64,000 bases of DNA, taken from positions 64,660 to 128,659 of the forward strand of contig CAUQLV010000002.1 of assembly GCA_963519235.1 (NCBI GenBank), in the 5' to 3' direction. Positions 40,382 to 48,922 of the stretch are shown here, piece after piece (positions within the stretch are counted from its first letter, which is position 1; every line of letters starts with the position of its first letter). The DNA comes from an uncultured Oscillospiraceae bacterium. Lineage in GTDB: Bacteria; Bacillota; Clostridia; Oscillospirales; Ruminococcaceae. Below the pieces are notes generated by a model that was not told where the DNA came from, did not search any database, and was given only the letters and a program-made list of their open reading frames with translations. The position numbers and the translations under genes were made by a program.

Positions 40382-41053
40382 TTGCAGTTTTGCGATAGAT
40401 GCAAAGTACAAGTTGCAGGAAGCAGAAAATACTGTCCGCTTTGCCAGGGCAGTCTTACCGGAAGCGGAGAGCCGGAGAACGAGGCATTCCCCGTTTTGCC
40501 CCGGTGGTACAGCCGGAGCGGCCTGCTATTGCATGCAATGATTTTTCTTTCGGTGACGGCGGCTGTGGTGTGCTTTGCGATAAATGCAATGTTTCCGGCG
40601 GAACGAGTCTGGTCGGTGTTTGTTGCGGCTGGGATCGCTTTTATGTGGATTGGCTTGGCGACAGCCCTTCGCAAACGCCACAATATTCCCAAGACAATCT
40701 TGTGGGAAGTGGTGCTCCTGTCCGTTTTTTCCGTTTTTTGGGACCTGCTGGCAGGAATGAATTGGTCCGGCTGGTCGGTGGATTATGTCATTCCGAGCCT
40801 GTGTGTGTTTGCGCTGCTTTCCATGACGGTAATTGCAAAAATATTGCGGATTCAGGTGGAGGACTATCTGATCTATCTCATGATCGGCACGCTGTTCGGC
40901 ATTCTGCCCATCATCTTTCTGTTAACCGGCCTTGTGCGCGTCCGCTATCCGTCAATTCTCTGTGTGACGGCAAGCGCTGTCTTTTTAACCGCGCTGCTCT
41001 CCTTTCAGGGGCGCAACATGCGTGCGGAATTGAAAAAAAAGCTGCATCTGTAA
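40382..41053 (+). CDS. Zn-ribbon membrane protein of unknown function
   Basis: N-terminal CDRC...CPLC zinc ribbon followed by about 5 TM segments. TTG start 10 nt after the acyltransferase stop. Confidence 0.6.
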   Translation: MQFCDRCKVQVAGSRKYCPLCQGSLTGSGEPENEAFPVLPRWYSRSGLLLHAMIFLSVTAAVVCFAINAMFPAERVWSVFVAAGIAFMWIGLATALRKRHNIPKTILWEVVLLSVFSVFWDLLAGMNWSGWSVDYVIPSLCVFALLSMTVIAKILRIQVEDYLIYLMIGTLFGILPIIFLLTGLVRVRYPSILCVTASAVFLTALLSFQGRNMRAELKKKLHL

Positions 41054-41120
41054 AATGAACTAATTTCACAAGATATGGTGTTGCCATCCAAAAAATCTAC
41101 TAAAGATTGTGATTTTGCGG

Positions 41121-41149
41121 TTGACTTTTCAGCCCCGATGCTTTATGCT
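41121..41149 (+). promoter_or_regulatory. Sigma-70-type promoter of the glycyl-radical peptide / nrdG unit
   Basis: TTGACT (41121-41126), 17-nt spacer, TATGCT (41144-41149). Confidence 0.5.
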
Positions 41150-41155
41150 TAATAA

Positions 41156-41180
41156 GCAATTGATCGGCGTCGCAATTGAT
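41156..41180 (+). repeat. Tandem direct repeat GCAATTGAT (2 copies, 16-bp register) at the predicted transcription start
   Basis: GCAATTGAT occurs at 41156-41164 and 41172-41180. Each copy contains the palindrome CAATTG. Confidence 0.6.
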
Positions 41181-41220
41181 GCCGAAGGAATAGACGTCCC
41201 CCTCATCGGGGAACAGTTAA

Positions 41221-41403
41221 ATGGAGGACTGCAAAGTGGGCAACAAGACAGAACAAATGGTTGGCGAAGGCATTAAATTTGAGAGAATCCGCAGGATTAC
41301 CGGTTATCTCGTGGGTACGGTTGACCGCTGGAACAACGCGAAGCGCTCCGAAGAGCACGACCGTGTAAAGCACGGCATGGGTGCTGGCCTGGAGCAGTTA
41401 TAA
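41221..41403 (+). CDS. Stand-alone glycyl-radical module homologous to the extreme C-terminus of NrdD
   Basis: ...IKFERIRRITGYLVGTVDRWNNAKRSEEHDRVKH... carries the RxxGY glycyl-radical loop of class III RNR and nothing else. An alternative start is the GTG at 41236, with GGAGGA 7 nt upstream. Confidence 0.75.
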   Translation: MEDCKVGNKTEQMVGEGIKFERIRRITGYLVGTVDRWNNAKRSEEHDRVKHGMGAGLEQL

Positions 41404-41413
41404 GAATATGCGG

Positions 41414-41447
41414 GAAGGGCGGCCTGCGGGCTGCCCTTTTCTTTTTT
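41414..41447 (+). terminator. Intrinsic terminator-like hairpin between the glycyl-radical peptide gene and nrdG
   Basis: GAAGGGCGGCC-tgcg-GGCTGCCCTTT stem followed by TCTTTTTT. The nrdG RBS (GGGGGAA) starts right after it. Confidence 0.55.
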
Positions 41448-41460
41448 GGGGGAATTGTTG

Positions 41461-41961
41461 ATGTCTGCCATCAGGCTTGCGGGTGTAGTCCGAGAATCCA
41501 TCGTGGACGGGCCCGGGTTTCGATTTGTCGTATTTGTACAGGGATGCCCGCACCATTGCGAGGGCTGTCATAATCCCCAGTCGCACGATTTTGCGAGCGG
41601 AAGTCTCTGTGAAACGGACACGCTGCTGGCGGAGATACAAAAAAATCCGCTGCTTTCCGGAGTCACCTTTTCCGGCGGGGAGCCTTTTTGCCAGCCGGAG
41701 CCGCTTGCAAAGCTGGGAAAAGAGATCAAAAAGCTGGGGCTGAACCTGATCGTTTACAGCGGCTATACTTACGAGGAGCTGGACGGCATGGACAGCCCGG
41801 ATGTGCATGCACTTCTGGATTTATCCGATTATCTCATCGACGGAAAATTTCTGCTTGAACAAAGAAATCTGCTGCTGCGTTACCGCGGCAGCGACAACCA
41901 GCGTATCATTGACCTGAAACGCACGCGGGAGCGGGGCGCTGTGGTTACAGCAAAACTGTAA
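41461..41961 (+). CDS. nrdG: Anaerobic ribonucleoside-triphosphate reductase activating protein (radical SAM)
   Basis: ESIVDGPGFRFVVFVQGCPHHCEGCHNPQSH (CxxxCxxC), GVTFSGGEP. Start at the ATG at 41461. Confidence 0.9.
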   Translation: MSAIRLAGVVRESIVDGPGFRFVVFVQGCPHHCEGCHNPQSHDFASGSLCETDTLLAEIQKNPLLSGVTFSGGEPFCQPEPLAKLGKEIKKLGLNLIVYSGYTYEELDGMDSPDVHALLDLSDYLIDGKFLLEQRNLLLRYRGSDNQRIIDLKRTRERGAVVTAKL

Positions 41962-41999
41962 AAGAAAGAGGACGCCGGCCGGCGTCCTCTTTCTTTGTT
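41962..41999. terminator. Bidirectional terminator (nrdG / GLUG lipoprotein)
   Basis: AAAGAAAGAGGACGCCGG/CCGGCGTCCTCTTTCTTT perfect palindrome. Confidence 0.8.
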
Positions 42000-42014
42000 T
42001 GTGTTATCAGTTGA

Positions 42015-43559
42015 CTAAATCGCGCCCATGCGAATCAGCTGCTGCGTTGTCATGCCAATCAGAGCAGCGCTGTTCGGCTGTTTTTCAGCAATCCCTGCGG
42101 CGGGAAGCCCACCGGCAGCTTCTGTGTCGTAAAAGCAGCCTACAAGAAGGCCGGAAGATCCGCTGTCGGATTCGTTCAATGAACCGACAAAACTGCCGGC
42201 GCAACCTTGCCGCGCGGGATGGTTCACTTTTACCGAAGCGATTCCGTGGTCTATGGTGCCCTGCCCGAGTTTGCCCGCAAATCCGCCGACAGCGATGGAC
42301 GAGGCTTTTCCCACGACTGTTCCGGTAACTGTGCAGTCGGTCAGCATGCTGGAGAAACCGTCAACCACACCGCAAAGCCCTCCCGCAATGCTGCGGCCGG
42401 TGACTGTGACATCCGCGCGGCATCCCTGCAAAACCCCGCCGCTGACCAGCCCGGCAATTCCGCCGGTGGCTTCCGAACCACTGATGTCGCCGGAAACCCT
42501 GCATTTGCTGATCCAGCCGCCGCTGACCCATCCGGTAATCCCGCCGCAGGGCTGTTTGGATTCCTTGTCCGCTTCAATCTTAACAGATTCCAGATTCAGG
42601 TTCGCAATAAACCCGTTGCTGCCCACGCCCGCAAACAGCCCGCCGCCCTTTACCGTCAGGTTGCGGATCGTGTGCCCCTGACCGTCAAATGTGGTGCAGA
42701 ATCCCTTGGGCGCGGGATCTCTGGGGTCGTCGGACATGTAGGCGCCGATGGGGAACATCAGGGTCCCAGACAGGTCAAGATCGGCATCCAGCAGATAAAC
42801 ATTATCTTGGTAGCCTCTGTCCCCCGAATTCACCAGTTTGGCCAGTTCAGTCAACTCCTGCACGGATTTGATTTTTATCACCTGACCATTGACGCTTTCC
42901 GGCAAAGGAAGGTTCCGGACAGAAACCATGCGCCAGAGAGTATCCGAGGATTTCGCCGTTAAAAACGCGCCGGCATCCTTTTCGGGAAAAGCGGCGGGCG
43001 CGAAAATATATTCGCCGGGATACAGTTCCCGCCCGGCGACACTACGGTTTACAACCATCCGCCAGCCACCGTCCTCAGTTTTTTCCAGACTGGACAACGT
43101 CAACTCCGGCAGATTGAACGGCGGTGCGTAGTCCGCGCTGAAACGAAGATCAGACGGGCCCGACGCCGCTGTGCGGTCTTTGCCGAAGCAGGTTTTGTAC
43201 AGTGCCGCGGTGTCCTCTGAGGGCAGCACATAGTTCACCACATCGGGACCGCTGTAAACGGCATAGGCGTCCAGCAGAAGGTTTTCTTTCGCCCAGCCAA
43301 ACGCAAAATTGCGCAGGGCATCCGAATTTGGCTCGCCTGCGCTGAATTCGGCGCCGCCGCAGTAGGCTTCGTAAATGCGAATGTAATCCTGCATCAGCGT
43401 GGCCTTTAAGGGTTCAATGCCACTGTCAGCCGCATCCGGGGCGGGTTTTTGAGGCTGAGAAAGAACGGTTATCCCGCTATCTGGCTGAATATTGCATCCT
43501 GCGAATAGGAACAGGCACGCTGCGAGTGTAACTGCGATTAGTTTCATAATCCACCTCAT
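42015..43559 (-). CDS. Lipoprotein with GLUG-motif repeats
   Basis: Signal peptide with lipobox (LFLFAGCN). Repeated GG(I/L/F)(A/C)G motifs (GGITGWVSGG, GGIAGLVSGG, GGLCGVVDG, GGFAGKLG). Confidence 0.7.
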   Translation of the reverse strand: MRWIMKLIAVTLAACLFLFAGCNIQPDSGITVLSQPQKPAPDAADSGIEPLKATLMQDYIRIYEAYCGGAEFSAGEPNSDALRNFAFGWAKENLLLDAYAVYSGPDVVNYVLPSEDTAALYKTCFGKDRTAASGPSDLRFSADYAPPFNLPELTLSSLEKTEDGGWRMVVNRSVAGRELYPGEYIFAPAAFPEKDAGAFLTAKSSDTLWRMVSVRNLPLPESVNGQVIKIKSVQELTELAKLVNSGDRGYQDNVYLLDADLDLSGTLMFPIGAYMSDDPRDPAPKGFCTTFDGQGHTIRNLTVKGGGLFAGVGSNGFIANLNLESVKIEADKESKQPCGGITGWVSGGWISKCRVSGDISGSEATGGIAGLVSGGVLQGCRADVTVTGRSIAGGLCGVVDGFSSMLTDCTVTGTVVGKASSIAVGGFAGKLGQGTIDHGIASVKVNHPARQGCAGSFVGSLNESDSGSSGLLVGCFYDTEAAGGLPAAGIAEKQPNSAALIGMTTQQLIRMGAI

Positions 43560-47329: not shown

Positions 47330-48922
47330 TTAGAAAAGCCAGTGGATTTGCAGCTTCTGTTCGCCGGTATCAGGGTTTCGCTCTCCGATGGAGATATGAT
47401 CCAGCAATTCGGCAGCCAGTTCCCGCGAAAGCGTTTTAAAATTCAGCAATTGATCGATTTGGCTGAGATTAGAGGACTGATTGCTGCTGTTTTTGAGATG
47501 CTCTAACTCGGCGTTGACTGCATCCACGCGGTTTTCCAACCGTTCTTTTTCGCGCAGATAGTCCCTGTTCAAGTTCATAAACTGCTCCGTATCTATCACA
47601 CCGGAAGACTTATCAAGATACAAGTCATGAATTGCTCTGGAACGCCGTTCCGCCTCCTGCTGCAAATTTCTAAGTTCTTTGCGCAGGGAGACCATTCTCT
47701 TTTCCGCCGGGTCGTCCTTCAATGACAGTTCTGTTCTGTTTGGCTCATAATACAGGCGGATATATCCATGAATCAGGGCGGCGACCTTCGCTTCCAGCAG
47801 GTCGAGCCGTATCATATGGTGGGAGCAAAGCGTCTGATTTGTGGAATACCGTTTGCACCGGAGATAGCAGCGTCGGCCGCTTCCGGTTCCATTGGACAGC
47901 TTGAGCATTGTGCTGCCGCAGTCCATACAGCGGACTTTTCCGGCGAGCGGGTGAATCATGCCAGAGCCGTCGCTCTTTGTGCGTTCACCGAGGAGGCGCT
48001 GAACGGTTTCAAAGGTATTCCTGTCAACGATCGCCTCGTGGGTATCCAAAACCACAATCCATTGGCTTTTCGGTACGGAAAGCAGCGCTTTAGATTTATA
48101 ACTGATTCTTCTGCGTTTACCCTGTACCATATCGCCCGCGTACATCCTGTTTTTCAGAATGCGTCCGACTGTTGTCCGGTTCCAAAGCCCAAGAGAATCT
48201 TTTTCAGAGCCGTTCACATAATTCAGCCCTTGTTGCTGCTTATATCTGGTTGGGTTGGGAATCCCCCGTTCATTCAGCTGTTCGGCAATGCGCTGTTTGC
48301 CGTATCCGGACAGATAGAGCCGGAAGATTTCACGGACGACATCGGCCGACTGCTTCTCGATCAGCAAATGGTTATGGTCAGCCGGGTCTTTCTGATACCC
48401 GTACACCGGGAAACTGCCGATATACTGTCCGCTTTTTCGTTTCATCCCCAAAACAGCGCGGATATTCTCTGACAGATCCTCTAAATACCATTCGTTGATG
48501 AGCCCGTTGATCTGACGGGCTTTTTTAGTTCCATTGAGTTCTGTATCCACATGATCCAGCACAGCCACAAAGCGGATGCCCCATAGCGGGAACTTATTAT
48601 GCAGAAATCGTTCCACCAACTCCATGTCGCGTGTAAAGCGGGATTGGGTCTTTACAAGAACGAGGTCAAACCTGCGCTGTTCCGCCTCCGCTATCATCTG
48701 GTTGAAAGCAGGGCGTGTACGGTCGGCACCGGAATAATCCTCGTCGCAATAAATATTGTAAATGTCCCAGCCGTTTTCCATCGCATATTTGACAAGCATC
48801 GTTTTCTGGTTTTGAATACTTTCCGATTCCATGCTTTTATCCGCATCCTCTTTGCTTAGCCGGCAATAAATTGCCGCCCGCTGCGAAGGGCTTTCCATTT
48901 TCTTTGCTGTTCCTCCTTTCAT
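47330..48922 (-). CDS. Large serine recombinase (resolvase domain, recombinase domain, Zn-ribbon, coiled-coil C-terminus; TnpX/TndX-like)
   Basis: AAIYCRLSKED catalytic-Ser motif, ...VKTQSRFTRD, recombinase domain (YGYQKD...), CMDCGSTM...CKRY Zn ribbon. The start may be the ATG at 48898. Confidence 0.9.
   Translation of the reverse strand: MKGGTAKKMESPSQRAAIYCRLSKEDADKSMESESIQNQKTMLVKYAMENGWDIYNIYCDEDYSGADRTRPAFNQMIAEAEQRRFDLVLVKTQSRFTRDMELVERFLHNKFPLWGIRFVAVLDHVDTELNGTKKARQINGLINEWYLEDLSENIRAVLGMKRKSGQYIGSFPVYGYQKDPADHNHLLIEKQSADVVREIFRLYLSGYGKQRIAEQLNERGIPNPTRYKQQQGLNYVNGSEKDSLGLWNRTTVGRILKNRMYAGDMVQGKRRRISYKSKALLSVPKSQWIVVLDTHEAIVDRNTFETVQRLLGERTKSDGSGMIHPLAGKVRCMDCGSTMLKLSNGTGSGRRCYLRCKRYSTNQTLCSHHMIRLDLLEAKVAALIHGYIRLYYEPNRTELSLKDDPAEKRMVSLRKELRNLQQEAERRSRAIHDLYLDKSSGVIDTEQFMNLNRDYLREKERLENRVDAVNAELEHLKNSSNQSSNLSQIDQLLNFKTLSRELAAELLDHISIGERNPDTGEQKLQIHWLF

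Follow-up and report, generated by a model that had tools for sequence, protein, structure and literature searches.

The 64-kb stretch of DNA analyzed here (hereafter the window; 64,000 nucleotides (nt) of contig CAUQLV010000002.1 from an uncultured Oscillospiraceae bacterium) carries two separate genes that by homology jointly specify a class III ribonucleotide reductase (RNR) of the PRK07111/Prevotella copri NrdD type, namely a small gene for a stand-alone glycyl-radical segment, which we term the tail, and (in part) a large gene for the rest of the enzyme, which we term the body. The relationships of the two products suggest that this is probably a naturally two-subunit class III RNR, in which a small subunit carrying the glycyl radical is provided in trans. 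In the window genome 22.4 kb of DNA separates the body from the tail, the two being on opposite strands, and an equivalent separation of 22 kb, again on opposite strands, is seen in Marasmitruncus massiliensis; hence, in these two organisms only an assembly in trans is possible. The initial annotation of the tail, made from the letters of the window alone, had offered either a naturally two-piece class III RNR or a replaceable radical-bearing subunit: the first option is directly supported by the evidence below, and the two options are not mutually exclusive. The features on which the argument turns are:

41236..41403, plus strand: stand-alone glycyl-radical tail gene of NrdD, 55 amino acids (aa) and a stop codon; an alternative ATG at 41221 would give 60 aa
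41223..41228, plus strand: Shine-Dalgarno sequence GGAGGA of the tail gene, read from the sequence, 7 nt before the GTG at 41236
41302..41304, plus strand: GGT codon of Gly23, the predicted radical glycine (the G of RITGYL), from the alignment with Gly711 of P. copri NrdD
41461..41961, plus strand: nrdG, radical-SAM (S-adenosylmethionine) activase of class III RNR, 166 aa (TIGR02491, E = 4.1e-41; Fer4_12, E = 4e-35)
63774..64000, minus strand: 3' end of the tail-less nrdD body gene (stop codon 63774..63776), with the last 74 aa in the window and the remainder beyond its end

Anatomy and complementarity of the two pieces

The 60-aa open reading frame (ORF) described by the initial annotation at 41221..41403 on the plus strand is present and reads as quoted there. 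Its suggestion that translation begins at the GTG at 41236, served by a GGAGGA ribosome-binding site, is favored by our analysis: this codon is most likely the true start, given the spacing of the GGAGGA, the choice of the same start by the gene caller in at least five independent assemblies, and the homologs, which begin there or later. The resemblance of the product to the last ~40 residues of class III RNRs, as stated there, is borne out by profile and structure-database searches. The Pfam NRDD profile (PF13597) matches residues 19-51 of the tail (E = 2.4e-8, 33.6 bits against a gathering score of 26.2), and does so only over its final 31 positions (532-562 of 562), in agreement with the claim that the small ORF contains no other part of NrdD. 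Comparably, the tail covers just the final ~35 positions of the NCBIfam NrdD equivalogs PRK14704 (E = 1.2e-14) and PRK07111 (E = 1.5e-12), its whole-protein scores of 34.9-53.8 bits falling below the equivalog cut-offs of 326-764. A phmmer search of the PDB recovered the NrdD of P. copri (8P23) as the sole match among solved structures, with tail residues 15-48 (55-aa form) aligned to chain residues 707-740 and the conserved core of the tail, F15-H46 (FERIRRITGYLVGTVDRWNNAKRSEEHDRVKH), opposite IDKLQRITGYLVGTTDRWNSGKLAELHDRVTH. The profile evidence is thus positive and specific to the extreme C-terminus of NrdD, and an absence of significant similarity to NrdD, which the initial annotation had named as a way in which it might fail, is contradicted by the PF13597 match above the gathering score.

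As the chain numbering of 8P23 equals the native numbering plus 4, Gly23 of the 55-aa form falls on Gly711, the radical glycine of P. copri NrdD, which approaches Cys416 in that enzyme (PMC11226230). Gly23 is invariant both in the family alignment (25/25 sequences) and in a wider codon comparison (81/81). An AlphaFold2 model of the tail by itself, built from the family alignment, yielded a single long helix with a predicted local distance difference test score of 55 and a predicted template modeling score of 0.22, and is uninformative.

The tail lies directly 5' of nrdG, as originally noted; the latter begins 58 nt past the tail stop codon and passes the TIGR02491 cut-off (140.5 bits against 126.1). 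The second piece had been placed at 63774..64000 as a tail-less nrdD: the lack of a tail stands, but the segment represents the 3' end of a gene on the minus strand, which continues past the edge of the window. The encoded product terminates in CPRCGRRDGESVPAEKLRELRKKFPGMPVFCGCE followed by the stop codon, and the last 74 aa, which match positions 485-531 of the NRDD profile, comprise a Zn-ribbon (C720, C730, C733) and a 27-aa extension, DGESVPAEKLRELRKKFPGMPVFCGCE. By means of the neighboring gene (63072..63722) we recovered the full body gene from a metagenome scaffold (ERZ28635666 scaffold_87; L006, 7658..9949), which also carries the tail ORF. The complete body is a 763-aa protein with ATP-cone and NRDD domains, aligns to residues 5-705 of the 8P23 chain with E = 1.5e-178, and is continued collinearly by the tail from residue 707. 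Its Cys177 (TETCCQ) aligns with Cys171 of P. copri NrdD, the second catalytic cysteine, located on the first barrel strand, and its Cys456 (YMGCRTRV) with the radical-initiator Cys416, the thiyl cysteine of the finger loop; the NxN flap (RENAN) is present and the Zn-ribbon keeps three cysteines. The body therefore looks catalytically intact by its sequence features, and the complete 763-aa protein has no RxxGY motif. The two pieces are exactly complementary: the body stops at position 531 of the NRDD profile and the tail starts at 532, such that neither product by itself is a complete NrdD and the two jointly cover the profile. A search of the window for further copies of the tail, nrdD or nrdG gave none.

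Two further observations concern the C-terminal part of the body. In the Zn-ribbon (63774..63860, minus strand; 9800..9949 in L006) an Asp replaces the first Zn-ligand Cys of the P. copri enzyme (DRDPVCGY versus NRCLDCGY). The extension of the window type ends in FCGCE, with FVGLE, FYGLE and FQGIE in relatives; hence, the terminal cysteines are not conserved, and the conserved part reads LRELRKK(F/Y)P.MP.F.G.E up to the stop codon.

Conservation, phyletic spread and evolution of the split

An identical 55-aa product is encoded in at least five independent assemblies, each time in the order DUF6320-tail-nrdG, and the isolate assembly of M. massiliensis (GCA_900186535.1) shows the same unlinked synteny; its version of the protein (RefSeq WP_101910609.1, 60 aa) is labeled 'anaerobic ribonucleoside-triphosphate reductase'. 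The tail gene differs from that of M. massiliensis by 13 synonymous and five non-synonymous codon changes, the figures for the core F15-H46 being seven and zero. Over 32 core codons of 81 sequences the proportion of synonymous differences (pS) is saturated at 0.885, that of non-synonymous differences (pN) is 0.117 (pN/pS 0.13), and 15/32 core positions are invariant. The tail gene is under strong purifying selection, which is also visible in the family alignment as a near-invariant core (GEGxxFERIRRITGYLVGTxDRWNNAKRAEEHDRVKH) between variable ends. Members of the family are 48-100 aa long. When 1.84 billion cluster representatives were scanned exhaustively with HMMER, 2145 clusters (50% identity) reached E <= 1e-3 and 792 reached E <= 1e-10, with lengths of 51-196 aa for all of the best 150; a word-index protein search with the tail gave 7375 matches, the best 120 all being 48-88 aa, a length distribution that is not to be taken as biology unless backed by the exhaustive search. 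Queried with the final 74 aa of the body, a word-index search of the same kind returned fragments of 54-128 aa alone, the organism's own 763-aa NrdD being absent, and is unfit for counts of fused and split forms; these fragments do show that the C-terminal extension of the body is conserved. The representative of the 90% cluster to which the tail protein is assigned (P0390, 445 aa) is unrelated to it in sequence and was set aside as a clustering artefact.

These observations bear on whether the small ORF could be the remnant of an nrdD disrupted by frameshift, assembly error or pseudogenization, an explanation that draws on the frequency with which short ORFs beside truncated genes prove to be pseudogene debris, and on one phage copy with a frameshift inside the tail (see below). 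We consider it next to impossible. A decayed, non-conserved fragment is incompatible with the pN/pS of the family, where synonymous sites are saturated and the core protein is near-invariant, and an assembly or sequencing frameshift with the recurrence of the split in isolate genomes and in the independent assemblies of the organism; these were the other two ways in which the initial annotation had allowed that it might be wrong. The 76 species-level loci with a stand-alone tail and the intact bodies described next point in the same direction.

A scan with the tail of a collection holding one genome per species detected at least 595 loci, and we analyzed the best 80 (L007-L086). The arrangement of a small ORF with nrdG, which the initial annotation proposed to look for in related genomes, recurs there: the tail is a stand-alone ORF at 76 of these best 80 loci, and the remaining four encode a fused nrdD (785-818 aa from stop to stop). 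A tail-less body ends within 600 nt upstream of the tail at 56/67 loci with enough upstream sequence, and nrdG occurs within 1.5 kb downstream at 49/71, with a median gap of 31 nt. In more than 55 genomes the tail-less body is encoded by an intact ORF of full length (~740-790 aa). Thus, the split is the rule within this clade of NrdD, with the pieces usually adjacent and the window genome and M. massiliensis being unusual unlinked cases. Eleven loci are unlinked from any body, as in the window, and three of them, all from Selenomonadales (L041, L058, L074), retain an adjacent nrdG. The split is found in six cultured isolates, namely Acutalibacter caecimuris, Scatolibacter rhodanostii, Anaerovibrio sp. 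RM50, Selenomonas sp. GACV-9, Oscillospiraceae 42-9 and Bacterium 1XD42-1. The taxon labels of the loci include Oscillospiraceae, Acutalibacteraceae, Lachnospiraceae, Selenomonadales, uncultured 'Bacilli', Fibrobacter and Treponemataceae; further labels of metagenome-assembled genomes (MAGs), which may include binning errors, are Muribaculaceae, Desulfovibrio and Succinivibrio.

The linked loci also bear on how the tail is translated. The tail occurs in frames 0, +1 and +2 relative to the body, the distance from the body stop to the matched part of the tail is 5-314 nt, and the body stop codons comprise TAA, TAG and TGA, mostly TAA. With the window included, 72/77 tails have their own GGAG-type Shine-Dalgarno sequence 4-16 nt before an ATG, and the tail is, judging from these signals, translated independently of the body. 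The closeness of most tails to the end of the body might otherwise suggest that the pieces are rejoined into a single chain by frameshifting, stop-codon read-through, RNA splicing or protein trans-splicing. RNR genes are known hosts of introns and inteins (PMC3653736), and the nrdD of the phage EL753P1 carries an intein-like insert. We nevertheless deem rejoining highly improbable: it is at odds with the occurrence of all three frames and all three stop codons and with the tails' own start signals, the gaps are too short for group I or group II introns, and the pieces of the window genome and M. massiliensis lie far apart on opposite strands. In a split intein one would expect an N-intein of ~100 aa and a C-intein of ~35 aa that has HN at its end and precedes a Cys, Ser or Thr. 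The 27-aa body extension and the 14-aa tail leader (MGNKTEQMVGEGIK) are far too short for these, the leader contains no HN[CST] motif, and a Pfam search found no intein or Hint domain in either piece.

The junction itself suggests how the two-subunit form may have come about. In the fused relatives the linker between the Zn-ribbon and the glycine loop has 7-9 residues (e.g., CPQCGRKEGEGDVGFERIRR in L057). The split bodies read CPRCGRREGEGV at this point and then continue for 25-45 more residues (in the window type, S.EKLRELRKK(F/Y)P.MP.F.G.E and the stop codon), whereas the tails begin with 10-25 variable residues, 14 in the window tail, before entering VGEGV(G/K)FERIRR. A GEG-like segment is carried by both halves, and we infer that the split arose via insertion or local duplication within the Zn-ribbon/glycine-loop linker. 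In a neighbor-joining tree of 64 bodies (midpoint rooting, no bootstrap) the four fused genes occupy three distinct positions amid the split ones. The fused and split states appear to interconvert, through either several re-fusions or several splits, and such interconversion argues for their functional equivalence.

Some of the data weigh against a two-subunit enzyme activated by NrdG. The 80 loci were picked by similarity to a split tail, so that the ratio of 76:4 overstates the frequency of the split among all NrdD proteins; 22 of the 71 evaluable loci have no recognizable nrdG within 1.5 kb downstream; and P. copri NrdD tethers its glycine loop to the Zn-ribbon by about one residue, whereas the 55-mer of the split form is untethered and would have to attain sufficient affinity for the body by itself.

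Variants of the split system were observed in several lineages. Long-form tails of 92-102 aa occur in L016, L038, L041, L053, L058 and L074 (Selenomonadales), in L064 (Faecalibacterium sp. CAG:74) and in L066 and L085, as well as in the proteins P0342, P0353 and P0347. They possess an extra conserved N-terminal domain of ~60 aa (MVVNGIDVTVKGLNDVSEKEI..YID...L.ISPAEDG.V.LDY.L.P.KFERIRR), for which a Pfam scan returned no family, and the bodies of these lineages end in another, shorter extension. The nrdD of a cultured phage, the Eggerthella phage EL753P1 (L087, OP172808.1, 1682..5143), is also split, in the order body, 102-aa hypothetical ORF, tail ORF. Its 960-aa body has no glycine loop and contains the above-mentioned intein-like insert at the thiyl-Cys loop, starting with ADERET after YMGC and ending in SHN before CRTRV. 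The tail as deposited has a frameshift exactly before TGY (GFERIRRI and a stop, then TTGYLTGSADRWNDAKKAELRDRVKHGK), which could be a sequencing error, decay or recoding.

The tail-nrdG locus, its regulatory elements and its neighbors

The association of the tail with nrdG, which persists even where the tail is unlinked from the body, might indicate that the tail serves NrdG as a regulator or decoy substrate, e.g., as a radical sink or sensor, with the body having a radical-free function; the docking of the tail into the body is, after all, something we infer. Such a role seems very improbable to us. The body retains every catalytic feature of an RNR, the tail retains, besides the activase recognition motif, the complete helix after the glycine, which in the P. 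copri enzyme packs against the barrel, and fused and split states interchange in evolution. Around the tail-nrdG locus we identified the following candidate regulatory elements:

41066..41081, plus strand: NrdR-box-like palindrome TCACAAGATATGGTGT, a candidate repressor site upstream of the tail, also kept in M. massiliensis
41121..41149, plus strand: candidate sigma-70-like promoter, TTGACT-17-TATGCT, with the hexamers kept in M. massiliensis
41412..41447, plus strand: terminator-like hairpin between the tail and nrdG, 13 bp stem and TTTTTT (-25.1 kcal/mol, z = -2.6)
41961..41996, plus strand: terminator-like hairpin closing the tail-nrdG unit, from a terminator scan

The promoter-like element noted by the initial annotation is present, but such a match is not above chance expectation (one found, 0.8 expected in the region). 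The palindrome was sought with what we take to be the NrdR box consensus, and TCACAAGATATGGTGT is the single match in the window at three or fewer mismatches. Within 300 nt upstream of the bodies of L007-L086 an NrdR-box-like motif is present in 33/60 related nrdD operons, as against 27/1200 background windows (2.3%). The relocated tail-nrdG unit thus appears, from these motif matches, to have kept a control responsive to deoxyribonucleoside triphosphates. At the promoter of the body gene (L006) no NrdR box was matched at three or fewer mismatches, the nearest candidate, GCACTATATCTAGTTG, having four. The classical pair of NrdR boxes with a spacing of 30-33 nt was seen at three loci alone at that stringency.

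In M. massiliensis the stem of the hairpin that separates the tail from nrdG is kept, one G-U pair having become G-C through a U-to-C change, and the T-run is shorter. Speculatively, this hairpin may be an attenuator that raises the tail transcript above the nrdG transcript; such an excess, if true, would fit a stoichiometric, consumable subunit beside a catalytic activase. The other genomes mostly have ~30 nt between the two genes, which leaves no room for a hairpin. An Rfam scan of 40800..42100 found no riboswitch or leader, its sub-threshold matches being confined to the two terminator hairpins. The 5' leader of the tail contains a short G+C-rich inverted repeat, CGTCCCCCTCATCGGGGAACA, which at 41195..41215 immediately precedes the ribosome-binding site, is partly kept in M. 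massiliensis and was flagged on the minus strand by the terminator scan.

Immediately upstream of the tail is a gene for a DUF6320 membrane protein (40382..41053, plus strand) with a zinc-ribbon-like CxxC...CxxC start at its N-terminus. The synteny of this gene with the tail is kept in all assemblies of the organism and in M. massiliensis, and no link of DUF6320 to RNR is known. Between the tail-nrdG locus and the body gene lies a gene for a large serine recombinase (47330..48922, minus strand; 522-530 aa) with Resolvase, Recombinase and Zn_ribbon_recom domains, which is likewise found in M. massiliensis and may be connected with the rearrangement that unlinked the two pieces.

Proposed mechanism and relationship to known systems

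Viewed against the single-chain NrdD enzymes and their NrdG partners (P. copri, 8P23; phage T4 NrdD, 1H78), the body and tail are homologous to and collinear with the P. copri protein, sharing with it the ATP-cone, the NxN flap, the two catalytic cysteines, the Zn-ribbon, the RITGYLVG loop and the nrdG partner. What sets the split pair apart from single-chain NrdD is a chain break after the Zn-ribbon and before the glycine loop, together with a C-terminal extension of 25-45 aa gained by the body and an N-terminal leader of 10-25 aa gained by the tail. In the two-subunit enzyme that we propose, the 763-aa body would provide the ATP-cone, the Zn-ribbon and the ten-stranded barrel that houses the thiyl-radical cysteine, while the 55-aa tail, equivalent to the last ~35 residues of an ordinary NrdD chain, would provide the glycyl-radical loop and a short C-terminal helix. 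NrdG would use S-adenosylmethionine to take a hydrogen from Gly23 of the tail, the tail would be seated non-covalently in the barrel of the body, and Gly23 would hand the radical to Cys456 in each catalytic cycle, yielding a catalytically competent RNR. As oxygen cleaves glycyl-radical enzymes at the radical glycine (PMC12288474; PMC13450708), its damage would be confined to a 6-kDa peptide that can be resynthesized, sparing the 86-kDa enzyme, which might confer an advantage in repair or turnover. A bolder form of this proposal, to which we give tentative and less than even credence, is that the glycyl-radical cofactor of this clade is a free, exchangeable 6-kDa subunit: NrdG would load the peptide off the enzyme, the peptide would dock into a permanently 'open' body, and it would be replaced after cleavage by oxygen.

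The closest functional parallel is YfiD/GrcA, the spare part of pyruvate formate-lyase (PFL), although the tail is derived from NrdD and not from PFL, and the two are not homologous at the family level: the tail gave no match to PF01228 or a GrcA model at E <= 1 in Pfam or NCBIfam, and GrcA is a protein of ~127 aa. Both are small stand-alone proteins with just the glycyl-radical loop of a large enzyme (PMC8683613; PMC13450708), both are presumably activated by the cognate radical-SAM activase, and both would complete a large subunit without a loop. PFL that has been cleaved at its glycine regains activity when separate YfiD/GrcA supplies a new loop (PMC8683613), and according to a 2026 review no class of glycyl-radical enzymes other than the formate lyases has known spare-part proteins (PMC13450708). 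The difference lies in the partner: GrcA is found alongside a complete PFL and comes into play only once oxygen has cleaved it, whereas the large subunit of the tail is genetically tail-less, so that the tail would be its normal rather than its emergency partner.

That the tail might instead rescue a complete, oxygen-cleaved NrdD encoded elsewhere in the genome, and not serve the tail-less body, is unlikely, though it deserves consideration because the concept is established for PFL with YfiD/GrcA, and because of orphan tails in L009, L018 and L075. These have neither a body nor nrdG within 10 kb, come from MAGs labeled Desulfovibrio, Anaerobiospirillum and Succinivibrio, and their genomes could hold a different, complete nrdD. 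In the window genome, by contrast, the sole nrdD seen is tail-less and otherwise intact, and the window has no second tail or nrdD copy. At most of the evaluable loci a tail-less body stands directly upstream of the tail, and the conservation of a 763-aa enzyme unable to carry its own radical would be senseless unless it were served by the tail. The two-subunit enzyme accordingly remains our preferred interpretation of the tail and body.

RNRs split or interrupted in other ways are known. The class II NrdJa/NrdJb of Pseudomonas aeruginosa and of the Thermus phage phiYS40 is an RNR subunit encoded by two consecutive genes whose products assemble non-covalently (PMC9669993; PMC3653736). It differs in belonging to another RNR class and in that the split separates the C-terminal IscU-like and Zn-finger domains, not the radical loop; NrdJb is a folded domain of substantial size, as opposed to a 55-mer. 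The NrdA of the Aeromonas phage Aeh1 (PMC3045599) and the phage nrdD genes with introns or inteins (PMC3653736) likewise show that RNR genes may be in fragments with the enzyme still being functional. Those interruptions are caused by identifiable mobile elements (the homing endonuclease mobE, group I introns and inteins) and are sporadic in single phages, while the split nrdD described here has no mobile element at the junction, a constant split site and conservation across many bacterial lineages. None of these known split RNRs isolates the radical loop as a separate small subunit.

A full-text literature search, whose coverage did not extend to most subscription journals, yielded no report of a split nrdD, of a spare part for an RNR or of a small protein derived from NrdD, and NCBIfam has no dedicated model for the small tail protein. 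A split NrdD that is widespread in anaerobes thus apparently has gone undescribed. A large RNR phylogeny removed sequences of fewer than 400 residues (PMC9531940), a filter that would hide the tails and keep the tail-less bodies without notice of the missing radical site; the split thus bears on both the annotation and the phylogeny of RNR.

The split touches on two problems of glycyl-radical enzymes, namely how the activase reaches a glycine buried in the barrel, and how the enzyme copes with irreversible, chain-cleaving damage by oxygen. If the two-subunit interpretation is true, the separate 55-residue glycine loop would make both directly testable, and the 'spare part' principle would be extended from pyruvate formate-lyase to the synthesis of DNA precursors. 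Should the subunit also prove exchangeable, this would be the first glycyl-radical enzyme with its radical site natively on a separate polypeptide, with the repair principle of GrcA constitutively built in, and the long-form tails would represent a further elaboration of it. The hosts (Oscillospiraceae, Acutalibacteraceae, Selenomonadales, Fibrobacter and others) live in the gut and rumen as strict anaerobes, for which the ability to tolerate transient oxygen is ecologically relevant.

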